A stretch of 64,000 nucleotides of DNA from a virus (Duplodnaviria; Caudoviricetes): IMG/VR virus record IMGVR_UViG_3300031993_000017. One strand, written 5' to 3'. A program made the position numbers and the translations under genes. The notes under the pieces are model-generated. The model had not been told where the DNA came from and ran no database searches. It worked only from the letters and a program-made list of their open reading frames with translations. Shown piece after piece: positions 2,239-58,934 of this stretch. The stretch's first letter is position 1. Every line of letters starts with the position of its first letter.

Positions 2239-2577
2239 TTAAGGTTTCAATTGATTCAAATAAGACGATATAACGATAATTGTACTACTTGTGTTTGTGT
2301 TCTTTTTGATAAACTCAACAAAAATTAAATCAAGCAATTTGTCCTTATCATAGTAGATAGGATGCGCATGTTGTTTATCATCATATCTGTAAAACAGATA
2401 CTCAGATTGCATTTCAACGCAAGTTAGTTTGCAATATTCACATGATTTTTCTAATATAAGTTTACATAACTCAGTAGCGGTTCCATTGAATGTTTCTGTT
2501 TTCTGTTTTGCACTACATCTAGTGGAATTTTTCTTAGAAGATCCATAAGGTGTATCGGATACATTTATAGACGCCAT
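2239..2577 (-). CDS. Hypothetical protein
   Basis: 112-aa ORF with GAGGGGG SD. Confidence 0.65.
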   Translation of the reverse strand: MASINVSDTPYGSSKKNSTRCSAKQKTETFNGTATELCKLILEKSCEYCKLTCVEMQSEYLFYRYDDKQHAHPIYYDKDKLLDLIFVEFIKKNTNTSSTIIVISSYLNQLKP

Positions 2578-2617
2578 CAGGTCCCCCTCACAGAATTTTT
2601 ATGAGCATAGATCATCA

Positions 2618-3085
2618 TTATCCCAATGTTCGTTTCCTCTTAACATATTGTATATGTCGTTCTTTTTCAAAATTTGCATATGCTTCAATGACTTTGCGAA
2701 TTTTAGATTCATCAAAATCAATTTCTACAAGAACTCTTTTACGACTAAGATTTGGATCGTAGACAGTATGACACTTGTAAAATTGCTTACTTAACCTGCT
2801 AACTGTAGTTGCAGTTAATCGGAACTTGTGGCCGTCATTAAAATGATTTTCTAATTCTGTGACACATTCGCTCCAGATGCGATCAAAATAGTTAGTCTTA
2901 AAGTAGTCTTTAAACGCGAATCCTACAGATCCAGGCAATGATTCATAATCATATCTACCATCTACCAATTCAAACATGGAATATCCATGTGCAACAGCAT
3001 ACTCCAGATCTTTGTATACATTCTTGCGTTGCTCTGATAGATCTCGTTTTTCAAATCTAGGAATGTGGTCAACCTCAATGATCAT
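2618..3085 (-). CDS. Hypothetical protein
   Basis: 155-aa ORF with GAGGAG SD. Confidence 0.7.
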   Translation of the reverse strand: MIIEVDHIPRFEKRDLSEQRKNVYKDLEYAVAHGYSMFELVDGRYDYESLPGSVGFAFKDYFKTNYFDRIWSECVTELENHFNDGHKFRLTATTVSRLSKQFYKCHTVYDPNLSRKRVLVEIDFDESKIRKVIEAYANFEKERHIQYVKRKRTLG

Positions 3086-3158
3086 GTGTAAGTTCTCCTC
3101 TCTAACAACTCACAATTCCGTTTTATTTCTCTTGCCACTTCGATCAGCTCTTATTCGA

Positions 3159-3317
3159 TCACTCATCCTCGCAATCCTCTGAGTCCTCGTCCTCTTCTTC
3201 ATCCTCAACAAGTCCCAACCTATACCGTGCAAACTCTGCCCGAATATCGTCTAGTTCATACTCCATAGCATATTCGTCATCTGAAATCATACCGTACTTC
3301 CACTCTTTGTAACTCAT
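3159..3317 (-). CDS. Small very acidic protein (52 aa, MSYKEWKYG...EDEEEDEDSEDCEDE)
   Basis: Hand-translated; SD AAGGAGGT upstream. Confidence 0.6.
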   Translation of the reverse strand: MSYKEWKYGMISDDEYAMEYELDDIRAEFARYRLGLVEDEEEDEDSEDCEDE

Positions 3318-3356
3318 CTAGCTACCTCCTTATAATAATAGACCTGTGTATGTGAG

Positions 3357-4511
3357 TCATGAAGCGTATTCAAATTTGCATCTGGTGAGCTCTGTCTGCT
3401 TGATGCCTCTGTACTCTTCATGAGATTTAATAGTTCCAGCTATCTTAGCAAGCACTTTATCTGTGTCAATGTACTTAGAAGTTCTCCAGATGAATACATT
3501 ACCACAACTGTCGAGGATCTGAAAGATGTAGGTTAAACCGTATACTGTTTCATAAGAGGTTACAAGACGAACGGACTGAAGGTCTGTTAATGTAACTTTA
3601 TCACCTACGGTTCCGTAGTATTCAGAAGAACCTAAATTCTGCTTCCGCTCATCTTCCTGCTTCTTGTATCTCAAATAGGAAGGAACTGCGGAAACGATGT
3701 ATCCGATATCTCTCCAAGACGCGTATTCATTAGAGAGAAGAGTTCTAACATTCAGCACGTATTCAGAAGAAGAGTCGGAACTATTCTGGAAATACTCGAG
3801 AACAGAAGATGTAAGATCTTTCGCATAATCGCTTTCACAATCAATGCTCTTATCCTTTTCAGATACTACCTGGTTGGTGAGATATCCAACAACCCGATCC
3901 TTAGTAGAGGGTTCACATTCGTCATTGACGGTCTTAACATATCCATGAAGCTTGATGATCTCACAAGCAACTCTGAGGATTTCTTCTACAGCTTCATATC
4001 TGTTACAGTTAGACAAAGAACATAACGGCTCAGAATAGGTTTCACACTCGGAAATGAATGTGCAGATATAAGTGATAAGTTCTGCGTCTAATCCGCCTGT
4101 GAAGTCTTTGAGGCAGTTCTTACCTACTTGCTTGAATTCGCCTGTATCGGTGTTGCGAACTAAGTAAGTATCTTTTCTGTATCTAAGAGTGTTGCAATGC
4201 TCACATGTGCAGGGAGCAGTATAGAATCTTTCAGGAACTTCATAAGAAGTTGTGTTACGGATCACATTTCCTGCTTCGGTGTGCTCGATGGTTCCTACGA
4301 ACTCCCACCCATTTATCCTTGCGTAACCCTCAGCTTCGACTTCTTTGCACTTGAGAGTAACTGTTACTCCATCAATAGTAAAATCCTGGTAGACATCGCC
4401 AAGCACAACGAATTTGAAAGGGTTGCCGTATTTAGCACTCTTGTTTCTGATAGTTACGATTTTAGCAGCTAACTTTGCTAAGTTCTCTTCGGGAATGATG
4501 TATCTTGACAT
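3357..4511 (-). CDS. Early hypothetical phage protein with CEHC motif and probable C-terminal OB-fold
   Basis: ORF after a sigma-A promoter; SD GAAGGAGG before MSRYIIP; C-terminal ...IAGTIKSHEEYRGIKQTELTRC. Confidence 0.7.
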   Translation of the reverse strand: MSRYIIPEENLAKLAAKIVTIRNKSAKYGNPFKFVVLGDVYQDFTIDGVTVTLKCKEVEAEGYARINGWEFVGTIEHTEAGNVIRNTTSYEVPERFYTAPCTCEHCNTLRYRKDTYLVRNTDTGEFKQVGKNCLKDFTGGLDAELITYICTFISECETYSEPLCSLSNCNRYEAVEEILRVACEIIKLHGYVKTVNDECEPSTKDRVVGYLTNQVVSEKDKSIDCESDYAKDLTSSVLEYFQNSSDSSSEYVLNVRTLLSNEYASWRDIGYIVSAVPSYLRYKKQEDERKQNLGSSEYYGTVGDKVTLTDLQSVRLVTSYETVYGLTYIFQILDSCGNVFIWRTSKYIDTDKVLAKIAGTIKSHEEYRGIKQTELTRCKFEYAS

Positions 4512-50853: not shown

Positions 50854-52332
50854 TCAACCTGCTTTCTGAGGAATACTGCAAAGATAAGTCAATGCAGTTT
50901 CCTGTAAATACTGAGTTGATTTTAAAGCACTATTCAACTCAACTAGCTTACCTGCTAACCTCAAACAGATAATGACATGATTTGTTCCATACTTTGAAAT
51001 TTTATCTTGGTAGTAAGAAGGAATCATGGTCTTTTGAATATCTTGTAAGAAAATATACTTCACTACATTCATTACAAATCCATGAAATCCTTCAAACCAC
51101 TTAGCAAAATTCACACCGGAATTATATACTCGATCAATGATTTCAGTAATCTTTGCATTATCCTTCTTTGCATAGGCACCAAGTAATGCAAAATAATCAT
51201 CGTAGTTAGGAAGATTCAAAGCCTTAACAACATTTTCAGTTGTAATATCATGACTGAATGCAAGTGCTTTATCAAGACTCGTGAGACTGTCTCTCATACC
51301 ACCGTTGGATAACTTTGCGATGTAGAGAATAGCATCGTCAGTATAAGTGTAATCCATACCTTCTGCAATCTCAGAATCCATTACATATTTCAATCTGTTA
51401 TAGATACCTTCCAGGCTTATCTTAGATAATTGAAATGTTTGAACTCTGGATATGATAGTAGCAGGAATCTTTTCTGGATTAGTAGTACAGAAGATAAATA
51501 CGCTTCTTGCAGGTTGCTCTTCTAGTACCTTCAGGAGAACTTGCCAAGCCTGAGGAGTTAAAACATGACACTCATCGATGATGAAGCACTTATACTTAGA
51601 TCCAATCGGATATGTAGAAGCTTGTTGAACTAACTCACGCATACTGTCAACACCGTTGTGAGATGCTGCGTCAATTTCTATAGACTCTCCGATGTTATCA
51701 TTTAAAACATTTGCTATGATTCTTGCAGAAGTTGTATTATGAGTCAGAATATAATCATCAGATACATAAGTATGATCTTCATGATCTATCATAATACACT
51801 GGCAGTCTTCTTCACCAATGTACTTTATATCTTCAATTCTACGATATTCATCAATATCTGGAATATCATCAGTAGCACATGAATAATTTGATAAATCTGA
51901 ACGTGGTATAGATAGATTAAGCCCATCTCCAAAAAGACGAACTAAATAGTCTGTAGTGACTACCTTAATTGAACCTTCAACATAAACTACATTTAAGTGT
52001 AGATCTGCAACTCGAATTGAACCACCATCTGCTAGAACTAATTCATAAATAGGCCTAACACCTTGCGGATATACTCCAGAAACTTTCCCAGTATGCCCCT
52101 GCCCAGTGATTACCTCAGTTCCAATCTTAACATCACGCATTTCAATGAACCCATTAGGTGTTAACACATGACTATCAAGTGGCTGTGCTTTCCCAGTGCC
52201 TGCAGGACCTGTAAGCAGAAAGTTCCGGTTAGATAATGTAGATTCGCACAGAGACTTCAACATCTTCACTACAAGTGTTTGTTCAGTCATATCTTCCCAG
52301 GTTTTTGGTCTATACTTTGTAGCTAAACTCAT
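50854..52332 (-). CDS. dnaX: Clamp loader ATPase gamma/tau-like subunit with intein
   Basis: LATKYRPK, GPAGTGK|TTSARI, EIDAASHNGVD, IIDECH, LLKVLEE, GGMRDSL. Confidence 0.92.
   Translation of the reverse strand: MSLATKYRPKTWEDMTEQTLVVKMLKSLCESTLSNRNFLLTGPAGTGKAQPLDSHVLTPNGFIEMRDVKIGTEVITGQGHTGKVSGVYPQGVRPIYELVLADGGSIRVADLHLNVVYVEGSIKVVTTDYLVRLFGDGLNLSIPRSDLSNYSCATDDIPDIDEYRRIEDIKYIGEEDCQCIMIDHEDHTYVSDDYILTHNTTSARIIANVLNDNIGESIEIDAASHNGVDSMRELVQQASTYPIGSKYKCFIIDECHVLTPQAWQVLLKVLEEQPARSVFIFCTTNPEKIPATIISRVQTFQLSKISLEGIYNRLKYVMDSEIAEGMDYTYTDDAILYIAKLSNGGMRDSLTSLDKALAFSHDITTENVVKALNLPNYDDYFALLGAYAKKDNAKITEIIDRVYNSGVNFAKWFEGFHGFVMNVVKYIFLQDIQKTMIPSYYQDKISKYGTNHVIICLRLAGKLVELNSALKSTQYLQETALTYLCSIPQKAG
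51736..52188 (-). mobile_element. Ala-start mini-intein (151 aa) in DnaX Walker A
   Basis: GK|AQPLDSHVLTPNG...DCQCIMID...ILTHN|TT. Confidence 0.9.
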
Positions 52333-53126
52333 CAGCGAAATCCCTTTCCATATTCTTGACATTTTTTATAGTACGGACACATAGACGGTGTACACCATTT
52401 ATCACCCACTGGAAGACCTTCTGGAGCAAGATTAGACTTCACTGCATCTAAAACTGCATTGAATCTTTCAAAAGTTTTGTTCCACGATTGCTCACTTACT
52501 TTTAACTCAAAGCATTTTAGCCCTCCATACTGACGATCTTGGTACACTACTAACACATTTGGAAGTTTTAGAAGTGCCGAATACGTCTGTATCTGGTCTA
52601 CATGTTCTGGTTTAACTGTAGTTAGTGCTTGCCAAGACGATGCTTCGGAAGTCTTTATCTCCAGTAAGTAAGGCTTTCCATATACTTTAACGATTCCATC
52701 ACATGCAAATCTAACGGGCGGGTCATAGAAAGTTACTAAAGTTTCAGGGCTATCTTCAGACTTCTCTACATCAAACGGACGTCCTATGTTTGAATTGGAC
52801 AAATGCTCTGCTACATCAATCCAATCATCACCTAAAAGCTCTATCAGGTTAGATTGTAAATTCCTATGGCACGCTGTTCCAATGTCTGCAATGAATGAAA
52901 GAGTTGTGTCTGGATTACTTACTACATCTGGAACGACACCTCTTAATTTGAACCACTGAAGCCTATCACATCTCAGGCTAGAGGGTGAAAAAGTCTTCCC
53001 TCTAACCTGAGATTTTTCTTCAGATATTTTTGCTGTCAGATGCTTCTCGTAGTTATCTAAAAATTCACAACTGATTGCTGAATTGAATCGGCTACCAGAA
53101 ATAGAAGAGATTTTCTTAAATGCCAT
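52332..53126 (-). CDS. Cas4-like / PD-(D/E)xK exonuclease
   Basis: SPSSLRC, GTACH, CDGIV...LLEIKT, QIQTY, C-terminal WC...CPYYKKC. Confidence 0.85.
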   Translation of the reverse strand: MAFKKISSISGSRFNSAISCEFLDNYEKHLTAKISEEKSQVRGKTFSPSSLRCDRLQWFKLRGVVPDVVSNPDTTLSFIADIGTACHRNLQSNLIELLGDDWIDVAEHLSNSNIGRPFDVEKSEDSPETLVTFYDPPVRFACDGIVKVYGKPYLLEIKTSEASSWQALTTVKPEHVDQIQTYSALLKLPNVLVVYQDRQYGGLKCFELKVSEQSWNKTFERFNAVLDAVKSNLAPEGLPVGDKWCTPSMCPYYKKCQEYGKGFR

Positions 53127-53138
53127 GATTGTTCCTCA

Positions 53139-54272
53139 TTATTCTAATCCGGCCATCATAGTAACAAGCTTATCATTCCAGAAAAGTAATCCTGATACTG
53201 CTTCAGGATCATCCGGAGAAGCAAGAGGATACATGTTAACAGATTCTGACTCGTCATAAGTGCTGATAACCTTACGAAGACGATCTACTTCAAATATAAC
53301 CTCAAAGGATTTATAGTTAGTTGTCTTGATAGGGATTACGCAATCAATGTTCTTGTTCACTATACGAACTACATCATCAGCCTTAGTAAAACGAACAACA
53401 CTATCACCGTCTGCAAAGATAAGTGCCTGGCCAAGATACTTGAGAATTTCAGAAGTAGATGCACTGAAAGATTCGGATAACTTCTGGTCGTCAATATTCA
53501 TCATTCCTAAGAAGATATCTGAGTTATAGGTTCCCATATCAGGATCATCTTCGTAGCTAGGAGTGAATTCAGACACATACTTGAAACTATCAGTAGCAAA
53601 TGAAATTACATAAGATCTACCAAATCGTACAACCGAACATTTCTCAGGTAACGAAATAAGCAGGTTGATAATAGTGTCTTTAAGTAAACACGACTCACCT
53701 AACTTAGATACATTCGACTTAGTAAAGAGACCGTTATCATAATCACCTACGATAACATCGCCACTGTTGCCTACCCAAACTTGTGTGTATACTTTGTGCA
53801 CAAATGACATCGAGATAGCGTACATCTGATGGTCTTTTACATACTTCCATTCTGCCTCGGAAATCTTTACATCTTCTCCAGAGTTTTCAGAAGTAGGCTT
53901 ATTGAATTCCAGACCTTCAATATCAAGAGATCTAGGAACTGTAAACTTAGACTTTCCAGACCTTACAATCAATCCGTCATTTCCGTTAGGATCATATTCG
54001 AACGAAATTGTGGAAGTATCAATACTAGATACAAGCTGCTTGAACAAAGAACTTGATACAAACAATGTGCTTCTTCCTTCCGGACCTTCATATGAACCTA
54101 ACAAATCTACCTGAGTTTTGATTCCAGATGCTTCTACATTAACAGACATTCCGGAACTAGAGAACGAAAGTTCTACTACCGTACTACGCTTGTCGTAATT
54201 TGAAATGTTTCCATTGATGATACTTAAAGAAAGAGCATCATCAAGTGGTTTAGTATTTGTTGTAAAAATCAT
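53139..54272 (-). CDS. dnaN: Sliding clamp (beta-clamp-like)
   Basis: 377 aa, three-domain beta-clamp-like pattern, located between polymerase and clamp loader. Confidence 0.6.
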   Translation of the reverse strand: MIFTTNTKPLDDALSLSIINGNISNYDKRSTVVELSFSSSGMSVNVEASGIKTQVDLLGSYEGPEGRSTLFVSSSLFKQLVSSIDTSTISFEYDPNGNDGLIVRSGKSKFTVPRSLDIEGLEFNKPTSENSGEDVKISEAEWKYVKDHQMYAISMSFVHKVYTQVWVGNSGDVIVGDYDNGLFTKSNVSKLGESCLLKDTIINLLISLPEKCSVVRFGRSYVISFATDSFKYVSEFTPSYEDDPDMGTYNSDIFLGMMNIDDQKLSESFSASTSEILKYLGQALIFADGDSVVRFTKADDVVRIVNKNIDCVIPIKTTNYKSFEVIFEVDRLRKVISTYDESESVNMYPLASPDDPEAVSGLLFWNDKLVTMMAGLE

Positions 54273-54275
54273 GTC

Positions 54276-56543
54276 TTACATTTCCTTTCTAGAATTTTTA
54301 ATTGAATAAGCCATCATCCTCCCGTAGAGAGTTTCGTTCTCTATCATATCTAGAAACTCTTCCCGAAGTATACGTCTTTTAACGATGTAGTCTTCGATGT
54401 TTTGTGTATACATCTCTGACACAACACCGTTTATTCCATGTGCAGGATCTCCCTTAGGTTTGCTACCATCAGGTTCATTGTAAACAGGTAACAAGTACTC
54501 CATTTCTCTAAGATGGTACTGAATCCATTTTATTTCTTCTGGATCAGTTGTATCAACCGACTTAGGTTTTGGATACTTACAAGGAAACTCTTCTCCATAC
54601 CAACGAAGTGTAGTAGTTACATCACACTTAGATGGGAACGGCAAGAAGTTAGCAGCTTCGCACATTATACTAGAAAGAAGTCTTCCACCTTCTTCCCAAG
54701 CCTCCATTGGAACTTCGGCTAATAACTCATCGTGGACGGGAATGAGTAATCTTCCGCATATCTTCTTCCAATCGGGGCTATTTTCTAGCATTATCATAGC
54801 AAGTTTTGTTTGGTCGGCCGCACTCTATATTACTATATCTTTCAAAATAGTACAGACTATATCTTCTGAATATGTTAAAACATTCAGTTCACCATTTCAA
54901 CTGGTAACTCATCTTCCAGCTTACTCCTCAACAACGAGGATAGTCGTTACACTTTAATTTCTACTTTAGTCCAAGCATGTAATGTAGAAATTCTTAGCAC
55001 GGTATCACCTGCTATCCATTTCTGGACCGTAGGCTCTCTTAGTCAGCTGCTTCGTCATTTGAAATATGTATATCGCTTTAGCTTAGATACATTGTCTTAT
55101 TCTGCTGATACCGTTAGCACTGCAATTATGCAGCACACCTATGAGTAATGTAGTTAGATGAATAAGGGCAGTGCAGCGGTCTACCCTGTATCATAGAATT
55201 CAGTGTCTGACGAGATCCGTCTTGAATCTTACTACGATTGTTAGTAACTCGTATGTGCTCATTCTCGTACAATTCTTTTATTCTAGGAGCCATCTGCCCC
55301 ATGTACTTGTACTGTTTGAATTCTTTGCACAATTCATCTTTTATTCTCTGCGGAATATCCGAAGATTCTTTTAAAGTAGAAGGATCTAAAGGATCTACAT
55401 CCGGATTAACGTATCCTTTCATTGCAGAAAATTCAAACTCGGGTAACTGCATCTCAGGAATATGTCTACGCCTCCCAAGTATTGTTTCAACATATCCATA
55501 CTTTCGTGCAAACGCCTGTGCAGATTTCATAAGTGCTAAGATTCCAGGAAATGCTTTCAGAACAGAATCATATACTTTCTGAGCAGATTTCAATTTCTCC
55601 TCTTTTGTCATATCGTCGCGTTTGCCATACAACTGATCTGCAATAGACGGAATAGCACGACCATAGGTTATCAAATATGGTAAAATTTAGACTATATCAT
55701 TACCGTGTTGTTCAACGGTACTTTGCGCTTCCGATGGTAACTCATCTTCCACCGTACAATTAGTCGTTAGACCTTATCAAGAATATTCTCGATCTTGGCA
55801 CAGGATTTGCATCAGCATTCCCTGTTAGCAGATTGATAAAGTGATCATTTCCTATCACACCAATTAAGTTCAATCCACACCCATGAGTAATATGGTTCAC
55901 AAAGTTTTCATTCTACACTACAAGAGAACAACTTGTGTAGACGGGGCATAACCTTTTTAGTTTACCCAATAGTATTGTTTTTGCTTCTCCTCGACGCTTC
56001 TTACCGTCAGGTTGGTACTCACCTGTTTCTGGATGAAACTCCAAACATTTTTCATATGGAACATTGAATGATAAACTTGCAATTCCTGCGTAAATGTCCC
56101 TTCCGTCTTGGAAGGTCTTTATCATTCCTTTATCACCGCTTATAAAAGCAGTTAATCTTGGTTCTTGTGCCTTGAACCTGTATTATGAATGTTCGCTACA
56201 CATTCTCTCCGATCACTCGGAGTATCGGACTATATCTTAACACTGAAATTCTGTTACCAAATTTGCAGTGTTCCCTACGTTTCCACTTCGCTTGAAGCGT
56301 ACTCTACTCGCTTGGTTATCTCAATTGACCTAGCACTACAGCTATTTATACATTTCTGTAAATGTCAATTTCTAGCATTCGATAGTCTCTACGGTTGTAA
56401 ATTATACAACCTCGGTATCGCCTTATTGTCGGTAAGGTTTCACCGATTTATAGGGTTTTACTACAGCACACAATTCTACTGTAGTCAGAAGACAACATTA
56501 CATAGGCCGGGGTCTGTATCTGTATCTTCCAATCGCTTGACAA
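54276..56543 (-). CDS. polA: Family A DNA polymerase, C-terminal part (exons 56543-56478, 56170-55964, 55671-55183, 54824-54276; about 436 aa)
   Basis: Splicing restores DYS|AQEPRL (motif A), AKTILLG|ITYG (motif B), IQG|SAAD; VHDEL (motif C); TTG start after SD GGAGGTG. Confidence 0.82.
54825..55182 (-). mobile_element. Group I intron 4 of polA (no ORF)
   Basis: 5' exon ends in U within P1 (GGGU/GCCC), terminal G, AAGAUAUAGUC element, in-frame junction IQG|SAAD. Confidence 0.88.
55672..55963 (-). mobile_element. Group I intron 3 of polA (no ORF)
   Basis: P1 GGGU/GCCC, CGACUA and AUGAUAUAGUC elements, terminal G, junction LLG|ITYG. Confidence 0.88.
56171..56477 (-). mobile_element. Group I intron 2 of polA (no ORF)
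   Basis: P1 CUACAGU/GCUGUAG, GAGACUA and AAGAUAUAGUCC elements, terminal G, junction DYS|AQEPR. Confidence 0.88.
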
Positions 56544-58934
56544 CCTTAACCACCTCCACTTCATTATTTTTCAATATAACTTCATCTCCGACGGATAAAG
56601 TGTTTACCGTTTTCATGCCATTTGGTGTATAAACTTTGTCATATCTTCCAAGTGCTACTGTAATTTCAGATTCATCTTCAACACACGCTAGTACTTTATC
56701 CATAGGAGGTGTTGCTCTGAACATATGTCGAATATCTGTTGCATGTGATGGAATATTTTGCATATTCAAAAATATTTGTGGACTATATCTTCGATACCCT
56801 CAATCATAATTGACGAGTATTGTTCGGCATTTCGAAAAGTAAATAGTTACTTTCCTACTCCTTTATTGGATAGTCTCTGCACCTTACACAATTTTCGATA
56901 CAATGCATGAATTTTACCATGTCCACTGATTGTTGCTAAAGCAAGATTATGTATATCATTGTTCATTTTATCTCCATCAATGTGATGAACAATGAAACCT
57001 TTTGGAATCTCTGTAATACCAAGTGCTTGACACATTACAACACTGTGATAAAACACGTACCCAGATCCTGCCCTTCCTGTATACCAATCAGGCTTCAGAA
57101 CCATAAGATATCCATGTCCGTCTTCAACAAATTCCCTGTAGTTTGGATGTTGTTCTCTAGTCTTACCCGTCATTGGATTCTTATCACCAAGTTTTGATAG
57201 CGTATACAGTCTCGCTTTTCGTTTATCTTGATACTCTTTTGTAAAATTATCATCGAGTATCATTTTGTAGACATAGTATTCAATTTTCGCTTCTTTAACA
57301 ATATCTTCCTGTCTCATGTTGGTGTTTGCATACAATCCACACACCAATTGAATAAGTTCCTCATCAACAACCTTTTTAGTAGTTGATTTGTTTTTATGGT
57401 AAGCATGTATACCGTTTTCAAACATTACACGTCTTAGTGTATCCTCTTTAAGAGTAAACTTATTGCAGGTTTCTTCAACCGTGTGACCATTTTCAATGAA
57501 TGATCTGATTGCGGATATTGTTTCTTCATTAAATTGTATCTTACGCATATCATGTACCTCCAAAGGTAGATATATGTGTGTCTTGGCTCATGGTTATGCA
57601 ACTGCCCTTCCATGAGTTAACCGAATTTTATGACCCCAATATGCTTTCTTAGGGTCAGCAGATGAAAGCCTGCCCGTATTGGCCCCAATTTGTTTGAACT
57701 GTGCATGAATTCTACTATCGGATGTAGTAGCATTTGGCATCTTGTCAACAAATGTGCTGAGAAGTACTCCAATACTACGAACTTTCAGTATTTGATTTAC
57801 TACAGGAATGTTCAACTCTGCAAGTACGTCCTTGTCTGTACTCATCTTGCCGTCTCTATCTGGCGGAGTGTTCAACACAGTATAAATCAAATACTTGGTA
57901 TGAACAGGGGATTTAGGATTAAAATCTTTTCCGCTAAAAAATGGTTGCTTCACTTTAGAGGATTGAATATTTACGACATGTTCTTTTAAAACACCATCAA
58001 CCATTTCTGCCAGTCGAGCTTTTTCTGTGAGCTCTAATTCATGATATCTTGCCTGAACTACACTAGCAACATCCTTGTCAATGAATGCACCGATTCTGTG
58101 CATATTTTGACAAATTGGAATGAGTGGAATTTCTACATTCCACACAAGATCTGCAATTCTCTCCAGATGTGCTTTCTGGCACTTAGGAGACATCTTATCA
58201 AGATACTTGATTTCAAAGAGATACAATTCATAGGTAATCTTAGCATCGTTTGCTGCATACAGACCTGCAACTTCAGGTTTGCAGTAAGGGAACAGTTCTG
58301 GCGAGAAGAAATCACTAAACTTCTTAGGATCACCTTTTCCCTTCAGTACATATTTGTTATAAAGTTCCTTCAATCCATTCTTCAGTTCATTTTCTTTCAA
58401 GCATCTCCAGGCAAGAATTACATCAAAATAACACACCTTGTTCAAATCTACATGAAGGTCTTTGTAGATCATAGCTAAGTCGAAATCCGCATTAGCAAAA
58501 ACTAACTTAACATTGTTGTCTGCTAGTCGTTGAAATTCAGAAGAAACATCTTGATAACTTAACTGGTTCTTGTAAGGAACATCAAATATAGGAACAAGAT
58601 GCTTCATAGGAATGTATATCTCAGATTCACCTGGATAATACAATGAAGCTCCTACGATTGTATCTTTGATCCTATCCAGTCCTGTTGTCTCGGTATCTAT
58701 TCCAGCAATACCAAAATCAATCAATCGAGAAACATATTCATGAAGTTCTTCTTTAGTAGTGACTAGCCTAGCAGTAGAATCTTTGAAATATTCAACAACT
58801 TCTTTTGATATTTCGTTCAATTTATCTATTACACTGCTAGATTTCATAGATGATTTAGGCGGTTGCAGAGCAGAATTACTCTGCTCTGCAGCCTTGTTTA
58901 TCTTATCCATTTGGTCTATGCTGAATAAACCCAT
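56485..58934 (-). CDS. polA: Family A DNA polymerase, N-terminal part (exons 58934-57651 and 56766-56485; about 521 aa): 3'-5' exonuclease, thumb, Hint-like tail
   Basis: IDTETTGLD, ANADFDL, YAANDA, TGRLSSADP|NMQNIP. Confidence 0.85.
56767..57650 (-). mobile_element. Group I intron 1 of polA carrying an HNH endonuclease
   Basis: P1 GACCCU/GGGGUC, GAGACUA and AAGAUAUAGUCC elements, terminal G, junction ADP|NMQNIP. Confidence 0.9.
56847..57548 (-). CDS. Intron-encoded HNH homing endonuclease
   Basis: GYVFYHSVVM...VHHIDGDKMNNDIHNL...HGKIH; SD GGAGGT before MRKIQ. Confidence 0.85.
   Translation of the reverse strand: MRKIQFNEETISAIRSFIENGHTVEETCNKFTLKEDTLRRVMFENGIHAYHKNKSTTKKVVDEELIQLVCGLYANTNMRQEDIVKEAKIEYYVYKMILDDNFTKEYQDKRKARLYTLSKLGDKNPMTGKTREQHPNYREFVEDGHGYLMVLKPDWYTGRAGSGYVFYHSVVMCQALGITEIPKGFIVHHIDGDKMNNDIHNLALATISGHGKIHALYRKLCKVQRLSNKGVGK

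Follow-up and report, generated by a model that had tools for sequence, protein, structure and literature searches.

The window analysed here is a stretch of 64,000 nucleotides from a virus of the Caudoviricetes (Duplodnaviria; IMG/VR record IMGVR_UViG_3300031993_000017), whose DNA comes from bovine gut metagenomes. Its minus strand encodes, from position 58934 down to 54276, a family A DNA polymerase matching Pfam PF01612 and PF00476; the gene is interrupted by four group I introns and, moreover, broken at the protein level. The data indicate that two separately initiated polymerase proteins, an N-part and a C-part, are very probably made from it. The former ends in an all-beta tail resembling part of a Hint/intein domain and lacking the residues of canonical splicing, while the latter opens with a short leader. 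We consider it likely that the two proteins assemble non-covalently into a two-subunit polymerase, kept together by a beta domain of Hint descent that is itself split.

Frame break and separate start of the C-part

Downstream of the first intron, the exon-2 frame (from 56766 downwards) reads the last polymerase residues of the N-part, NMQNIPSHATDIRHMFRATP (56707–56766), a segment invariant or nearly so across 30 relatives, and then continues for 73 codons (56706–56488) up to a TGA (56487–56485), which lies inside the C-part codons for the Ser-Ser-Asp of motif A. The continuation of the polymerase, ...KIQIQTPAYVMLSSDYS, is in the +1 frame, and the C-part open reading frame (ORF) overlaps that of the N-part by 59 nt. 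The cut falls nine residues before the motif A aspartate, inside the palm, in the turn between the FRATP strand and the motif A strand, a site that we take to be about Ala695–Asp698 of E. coli Pol I (our own numbering from Asp705). A TTG (56543–56541) stands 7 nt downstream of the Shine-Dalgarno sequence GGAGGTG (56557–56551). An earlier note on this DNA had described a polymerase broken just before motif A, a first frame stopping at 56485, a resumption in the +1 frame and a TTG start with its ribosome-binding site, and all of these elements were recovered.

The same note had proposed looking for the break in reads and relatives, and it is present in both independent contigs and relatives. Contigs from other samples or studies (runs X4, X5, and X6) span it at about 90–95% identity, with substitutions only and no indels. 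The ORF made of the exon and the tail was found in more than 30 metagenomic relatives, and its 94-residue product has 21 metagenome homologues of similar size. Assembly error or recent mutation was ruled out by the independent bovine-gut contigs together with these homologues. A stop-free run of 73 codons has a chance probability of about 0.004 at the local base composition. A phmmer search of 1.8 billion representatives with the tail alone retrieved 13 proteins; in all 12 true relatives the tail lies at the extreme C-terminus, and the thirteenth match (P0033) is an unrelated protein of 1329 residues with a weak partial match. Scanning IMG/VR with the N-part as query gave no match. Among strain variants of the tail, 11 of the 15 substitution sites listed are third bases of codons as read in the tail frame (binomial p 0.002; the list is partial). 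This bias, together with the lack of indels, points to purifying selection acting on the tail frame.

Read from the TTG at 56543, the C-part gives MSSDWKIQIQTPAYVMLSSDYS. To place this start within the family, we can refer to the 652 relatives retrieved with the C-part of locus L006 as query: the best 120 listed include 64 stand-alone C-parts, whose leader places 15–20 residues, rarely more, ahead of the motif A aspartate and follows the consensus [YWF]-[KQ]-[ILV]-[PKR]-[VI]-x-[TH]-P-x-Y-V. With 19 residues ahead of the Asp, the TTG product of the window, MSSDWKIQIQTPAYVMLSS, is of modal length, and it fits the consensus at almost every position; therefore, 56543 was identified as the start.

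The junction DNA was read in eleven relatives (L001, L002, L004, L006–L010, L012/L013, and L014). Every split locus with a readable C-part junction, that is, the window, L001, L004, L006, L007, L008, L012/L013, and L014, has a start 5–10 codons before (T/H/S)P-x-YV. A Shine-Dalgarno sequence can be read ahead of it in the window, L001, L004, L006, L008, L012, and L014, L007 being the exception, with an ATG giving MKVKHSPYILMSSDFS. In L004 a TAA is followed, in the same frame, by AAAGGAGAG ahead of a TTG; L014 has GGGAGGT and then a TTG, and L008 shows an overlap of the type GAGGAGG...TGATG. Whole genes separate the halves at two loci: a 100-residue Lar-like gene in L006 (6302–6604), followed by an intron-less C-part gene of 428 residues starting MKVRVQHPEYVMF, and a 612-residue gene in L012/L013 (L012:3175–5010). 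Neither is a recognisable homing endonuclease; the first encodes a Lar-type zinc-ribbon protein, and the second carries DUF7487 and a weak Mom-like region. Three contigs carry other ORFs after the tail and do not extend to the C-part: L009 (5.9 kb) has a xanthine/uracil permease gene (2349–3686) right after the polymerase N-part, and then four more genes, whereas L002 and L010 end behind an unassigned ORF of 308 and 89 residues, respectively.

The closest relative, L001 (58% identity), has behind its tail ORF a duplicated exon end that is dead; AAAGGAG and an ATG come next, and translation from the latter gives MSNNWKIKVKTPAYVMLSSDYS. About 75 nt of exon end (WKI..TPAYVMLSSDY) are duplicated there (L001:6225–6390); the first copy, now without start and splice site, supplies the stop of the tail ORF, and the second has its own Shine-Dalgarno sequence and ATG. 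Judged from its sequence, the duplication looks like an intermediate that resolved an ORF overlap of the window type.

The earlier note had also considered that a single full-length chain might be produced, by ribosomes that shift into the +1 frame near GAC CCC GGC or that bypass the stretch from one Thr-Pro site to the other. Shifted in this way after CCC, the reading would give ...DTDTDP-AYVMLSSDYS, mimicking TP-AYVML, and relatives in which the same region is read in frame show that a fused protein is tolerated; as in the bypass of T4 gene 60 and in programmed +1 frameshifting, the coding gap has a Thr-Pro codon pair on both sides. However, the relatives share neither a frame relation (a +1 overlap in the window, the same frame after TAA in L004, TGATG in L008) nor a slippery site, and therefore frameshifting or bypass is not the general mechanism. 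In L001, moreover, the homologous site is the dead copy, where the frame reaches a stop and no splice site is present, whereas the live C-part has its own ATG, and genes of 100–612 residues part the halves in L006 and L012/L013. The shift would also drop the last strand of the tail, which fused relatives keep, and the TTG product corresponds to the modal N-terminus of the C-part family. Unlike that of T4 gene 60, the gap, about 200 nt long, is conserved and translated, and the relatives have independent starts and intervening genes. We regard a single chain made in either of these ways as very improbable. The two-subunit polymerase of the earlier note, in contrast, agrees with the separate starts in the window and in all split relatives with a readable junction, as well as with the genes lying between the halves. 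Given the 59-nt overlap of the two ORFs, their translation is probably coupled in the window.

The Hint-like tail and the missing splicing residues

The tail (56488–56706, minus strand) was modelled by AlphaFold2 (AF2) as a single chain with 30 homologues. The model is an all-beta domain of seven strands, with a predicted local distance difference test score (pLDDT) of 84–92 over residues 31–92. The earlier note had proposed a similarity to Hint domains and a profile comparison with them, and five independent tests, each of them weak, agree with that similarity. In Pfam, Hint_2 matches nine of the 30 members, always at profile positions 9–41 and always below threshold, and Vint, Hom_end_hint and PT-HINT match some of them as well. 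The best match in a profile search of PDB sequences is the gp41-1 split intein (residues 6–45, E 0.007). Aligned by hhalign with the bona fide N-inteins that relatives carry in the same gene, tail residues 24–74 correspond to intein residues 7–57 in the expected register (E 7e-5, probability 63%). The top ten Foldseek matches of the tail model are inteins (E 0.2–0.4), no match against the PDB reaching an E of 0.001 or better, and VIA-align superposes 50–54 residues on the PolII, MchDnaB-1, gp41-1 and PI-SceI inteins with Z of 6.0–6.4 and a root-mean-square deviation of 1.4–1.9 Å. Finally, a feature search of the protein atlas retrieved exclusively Hint families (scores 0.84–0.87), the PT-HINT clusters being the nearest. 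The structural match to inteins spans about one lobe only, a complete Hint fold having about 130 residues or more. Taken together, these concordant results suggest that the tail corresponds to the N-terminal part of a Hint/intein fold.

As regards the chemistry, where gp41-1 and the N-inteins of relatives have Cys1, the tail of the window has an aligned Ala, and the tails of relatives have Ala, Ser, Thr, Lys, Asn, Val or Ile; a Cys is frequent, although not universal, about 17 residues before this position. The 73-residue tail has no TxxH, and the hhalign match stops at N-intein position 57, short of block B. At the other side of the break, the leader of the window ends ...IQIQ-TP, with no terminal His-Asn; in the 64 leaders, Asn is outside the six commonest residues at every position before (T/H)P, and 15 of them have His as the candidate +1 residue. 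Since Cys1, TxxH and His-Asn/+1 are all missing, canonical splicing is excluded, as the earlier note had maintained, and the lack of catalytic residues also rules out class 3 intein splicing. Accordingly to known chemistry, the halves should not be ligated into one host protein.

A true split intein does occur in the same polymerase gene of some relatives, 25 codons upstream (L006:4730–5174, L004:4621–5104, L007:3479–3993, and L010:1290–1789), and is missing from the window. Its N-intein has Cys1 and a T/PxxH block, with ...TGR(L/M)S ahead of the junction and CI...T(S/G/A/P)(D/E)H(H/P)I... after it; its C-intein, encoded apart behind a Shine-Dalgarno sequence of its own, ends ...HHHNF...VHN, followed by SA-x-P. 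The middle piece (e.g., P0029, 132 residues) comprises the C-intein, 25 polymerase residues and the Hint-like tail, and the phages of L004, L006, L007 and L010 thus encode their polymerase in three polypeptides. The canonical split intein and the module of the window (tail plus leader) share the gene, the phage group, separately encoded halves and Shine-Dalgarno sites of their own; in contrast, Cys1, T/PxxH, HHHNF...VHN and Ser+1 are all present in the former and all absent from the latter.

The nearby split intein is also what could favour a ligation of the halves by some non-canonical trans-splicing, together with the many leaders having a His two residues before (T/H)P and the many tails having a Cys. 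No potential nucleophile is conserved, however, the position aligned with Cys1 being variable; TxxH and a terminal Asn or Gln are missing, and +1 is His in 15 of the 64 leaders. Furthermore, the smallest Hint domains are about twice as long as the module (75–85 residues), and in-frame relatives retain it as an insert. This possibility appears improbable in the extreme.

The closest known systems are the naturally split inteins or "fractured genes" (Dassa et al. 2009, PMC2677866), such as cyanobacterial DnaE, gp41-1, NrdJ-1 and IMPDH-1. As in those systems, the break falls in a highly conserved catalytic site of a replication enzyme, a Hint-N-like region closes the N-fragment and a short complementary piece opens the C-fragment, the halves being encoded and translated separately; some fractured-gene loci also have a free-standing ORF between the halves, and gp41-1 is the best PDB profile match of the tail. 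Unlike them, the module of the window is devoid of Cys1, TxxH and His-Asn/+1, which makes ligation by known chemistry impossible, measures 73 + about 10 residues rather than the about 100 + 35 of split inteins, and also exists as a permanent in-frame insert, while no ORF lying between the halves can be recognised as a homing endonuclease. Degenerate or non-splicing Hint domains (bacterial intein-like domains, PT-HINT) likewise give Hint signals without the full intein chemistry; these, however, are of full size and still cleave, whereas the module is about one lobe divided between two proteins. In the literature searched, no Hint stub devoid of splicing is described at the split of a polymerase.

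Three states of the site and the proposed docking role

Among the relatives, the site is found without any insert, with an in-frame insert of about 80 residues, or split, the last being the commonest state in those examined. The insert-free forms (P0046, P0086, P0108, P0126, P0127, P0134, and P0135) read FRATPGYVMLSSDYS, with the junction FRATPGYVML. In the in-frame forms P0088 and P0095, tail and leader make up a single insert of about 80–86 residues; this organization was confirmed in the DNA of the IMG/VR contigs L011 (175 kb) and L015/L016, with no Met in the leader. The fused forms came from the C-part search and from IMG/VR; a word-based search for longer proteins with the tail retrieved none. 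Variation also exists close to the window: a contig of run X2 joins 56707/GGA/56504 (...ACA CCT GGA TAT GTA..., TPGYV) and is an allele without the tail insertion (56505–56706), and a DNA contig of run X6 lacks exactly intron 2, 56171–56477 (joint 56170/G/56479). Intron 2 and the tail insertion are, therefore, presence/absence polymorphisms in the same habitat.

In the tree built from motif A onwards (55–63 rows), the three states are interspersed and cluster no more than shuffled labels do. On its starred branches, at least four changes are required to account for the insertion-free state, and the approximately unbiased (AU) test rejects placing the seven forms without insertion in one clade (p about 1e-53), a hypothesis set after the FastTree result had been viewed. 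This interspersion indicates that the module is often gained, lost or exchanged, and that it behaves like a mobile or freely exchanged element. It is located in a 290-nt exon between two homing-type introns, and the co-conversion tracts of these flanking introns would be a plausible vehicle for a hitchhiking module.

The fused forms bear directly on what tail and leader might do in the split ones. The AF2 model of the fused P0095 has a mean pLDDT of 88.5, with the insert all-beta (pLDDT 72–86) and the leader forming a strand (residues 114–119) directly before the motif A strand (residues 123–130). On account of this position, we propose that in split forms the leader completes the tail domain. 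According to this scheme, the polymerase would be made as two polypeptides from one spliced transcript. The N-part brings the exonuclease, the thumb and the TGRLSS...QNIPSH...IRHMFRATP segment, ending in the 73-residue, putatively Hint-derived beta domain, and the C-part, starting at TTG 56543, brings a 10-residue leader, predicted as a beta strand, and motifs A, B and C; with its parts so distributed, the enzyme can work only as a heterodimer. The overlap of the ORFs would equalise the amounts of the two proteins, which, without splicing residues, would assemble non-covalently. The leader strand would then complement the tail domain, rebuilding the small beta domain found as an in-frame insert in relatives, and this would sit in the hairpin loop before motif A, stapling two palm strands together.

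That tail and leader are a docking device is, in our opinion, slightly better than an even bet, and the idea is strengthened by the natural relatives in which both belong to one in-frame insertion domain. The earlier note had seen in the tail a split-intein relic serving as a docking module. The docking is retained here as a proposal helped by the fused relatives; as for the descent, the existence of in-frame forms implies that the module need not derive from a split intein, another possible origin being a degenerate Hint insertion in which the split arose at a later stage. The leader might also be a diverged duplicate of the HMFRATP strand, although the patterns differ beyond the common Thr-Pro.

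Several points weigh against a Hint-derived docking domain. Each of the Hint tests is below the usual significance level, and phage tail-tip barrels reach a similar Z of about 6 in VIA-align. The AF2 models are of single chains, and both the complex and the packing of the leader are proposals. With just 5–6 residues, some leaders (MKVKH, MKVRVQ) would make a rather short docking strand, and the halves might be held together by the polymerase fold alone.

If so, the enzyme would be a real two-gene polymerase joined by its native interface, and tail and leader would be functionless passengers left by a decayed intein or insertion. Phage DNA polymerases split without an intein do exist: T4-like gp43 A/B, cited in PMC2677866, and the PolA of clade B T7-like cyanophages, where the split puts the exonuclease domain in an ORF of its own (PMC12695635), work without any such module; in the OM43 phages MEP401/402 the polymerase is split by a small ORF without known identity (PMC10580990). 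They resemble the window in having two genes for an essential polymerase and, presumably, a non-covalent assembly; unlike the window, as their papers describe them, they have neither a cut inside the palm nor a dedicated Hint-like module. To these examples we can add the insertion-free relatives, which apparently function without the module, and the poor conservation of the tail sequence (20–50% identity). Nevertheless, length, beta pattern and open frame are kept in many lineages, in-frame and split, strain variants show the third-position bias and no indels, and the leader motif is conserved in 64 proteins; moreover, useless DNA is usually deleted from phage genomes. We consider passenger status unlikely, albeit deserving attention.

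A further explanation is that the insertion domain serves a purpose unrelated to joining the halves, such as binding the beta clamp of the phage or another replisome partner, or regulation, the split being incidental. Its persistence as an in-frame domain in unsplit polymerases would fit this idea; however, no known binding motif was seen in the module, its sequence is very variable apart from the structural pattern, and close relatives do without it. An independent function of this kind appears quite improbable, and a two-subunit polymerase docked through tail and leader is the reading followed below.

More speculatively, and with real doubt on our part, the Hint half-domain of about 80 residues might represent a previously undescribed element: an ex-intein surviving as a self-complementing "protein staple", in frame or cut, and spreading among phage polA genes via the co-conversion tracts of flanking homing introns. 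If this were true, the staple would allow an essential polymerase to be encoded in pieces and, together with the true split intein of some relatives, would yield the three-piece polymerase. In any case, the relatives form a large natural group of family A polymerases whose cut lies inside the palm, at a site tolerating absence, insertion and physical separation, and they offer a natural series for the fate of an intein after the loss of splicing, starting with a true split intein and leading through an in-frame Hint stub that does not splice to a split stub. If tail and leader do pair, they would be a small natural split-domain pair (about 65 + 10 residues) and a candidate protein-complementation tag. 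As for annotation, gene callers list such polymerases as fragments or pseudogenes.

Exons, introns and neighbouring genes

All features described in this section lie on the minus strand, and exon/intron boundaries were derived by tblastn against the uninterrupted relative L011. Exon 1 (57651–58934, 428 codons) encodes the 3'-5' exonuclease and the N-terminal polymerase region, with Pfam matches to PF01612 (4e-14) and PF00476 (2e-17), is covered at residues 5–424 in the alignment to L011 and ends ...TGRLSSADP. Intron 1 (56767–57650) carries an HNH endonuclease ORF (56847–57563; HNH_3 at 6e-11) and gave no match in Rfam; the relatives P0023 and P0028 are intron-free at this position. The first exon of the C-part (56478–56543) includes the TTG start, the leader MSSDWKIQIQ and then TPAYVMLSSDYS, with the motif A Asp; position 56478 is its last base (AGT), and the 5' splice site of intron 2 comes right behind DYS.

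Intron 2 (56171–56477) matches Rfam RF00028 at the gathering score (50.2 bits, E 8.5e-11), and in its P1 ACUACAGU pairs with GCUGUAGU, the splice site being occupied by a U-G pair. Introns 3 (55672–55963; 37.2 bits, E 6.6e-7) and 4 (54825–55182; 30.4 bits, E 6.9e-5) match the same family below the gathering score and were recognised together with their splice context. The three RF00028 matches span 56206–56498, 55667–55899 and 54833–55157, respectively, and the group I hallmarks (exon ending in U, intron ending in G) are found at all four junctions. The remaining exons of the C-part, all aligned with L011 by tblastn, are exon 3 (55964–56170; AQEPRL...AKTILLG, with the first half of motif B), exon 4 (55183–55671; ITYG...NSMIQG, 59.5% identity) and exon 5 (54276–54824; SAADQTK...PVHDE, motif C, to the stop), the last two matching PF00476.

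The spliced products have exactly 521 and 436 residues, the sizes that the earlier note had estimated. The spliced exons align with the continuous relative over residues 5–937, except for 490–532, corresponding to the end of the insert and the leader and too diverged for tblastn. With its exonuclease and the motifs SSDYS (A), KKRRGEAKTILLG/ITYG (B, interrupted by intron 3) and PVHDE (C), the family A polymerase is otherwise intact. The whole polA region gave no megablast match among phage records; at the protein level, the best relatives are Clostridium and Bacillus phages (about 33% identity).

As for the surroundings, in L008 a resolvase and an IS605 OrfB/TnpB-like pair lie just downstream of the replication genes (L008:6800–8510). 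In the window, polA is directly followed by two ORFs of 377 (53139–54272) and 264 residues (52332–53126) with no Pfam match at E 0.01, the latter ending in the Cys cluster CTPSMCPYYKKC. Further on, a DnaX-like clamp-loader gene (50854–52362) has an insert of about 150 residues right after the P-loop GTGK. Pfam gave no Hint match for this insert; it starts with Ala (AQPLDSHVLTPNGF...), ends ...YILTHN/TTSAR and resembles an intein with Ala at position 1.

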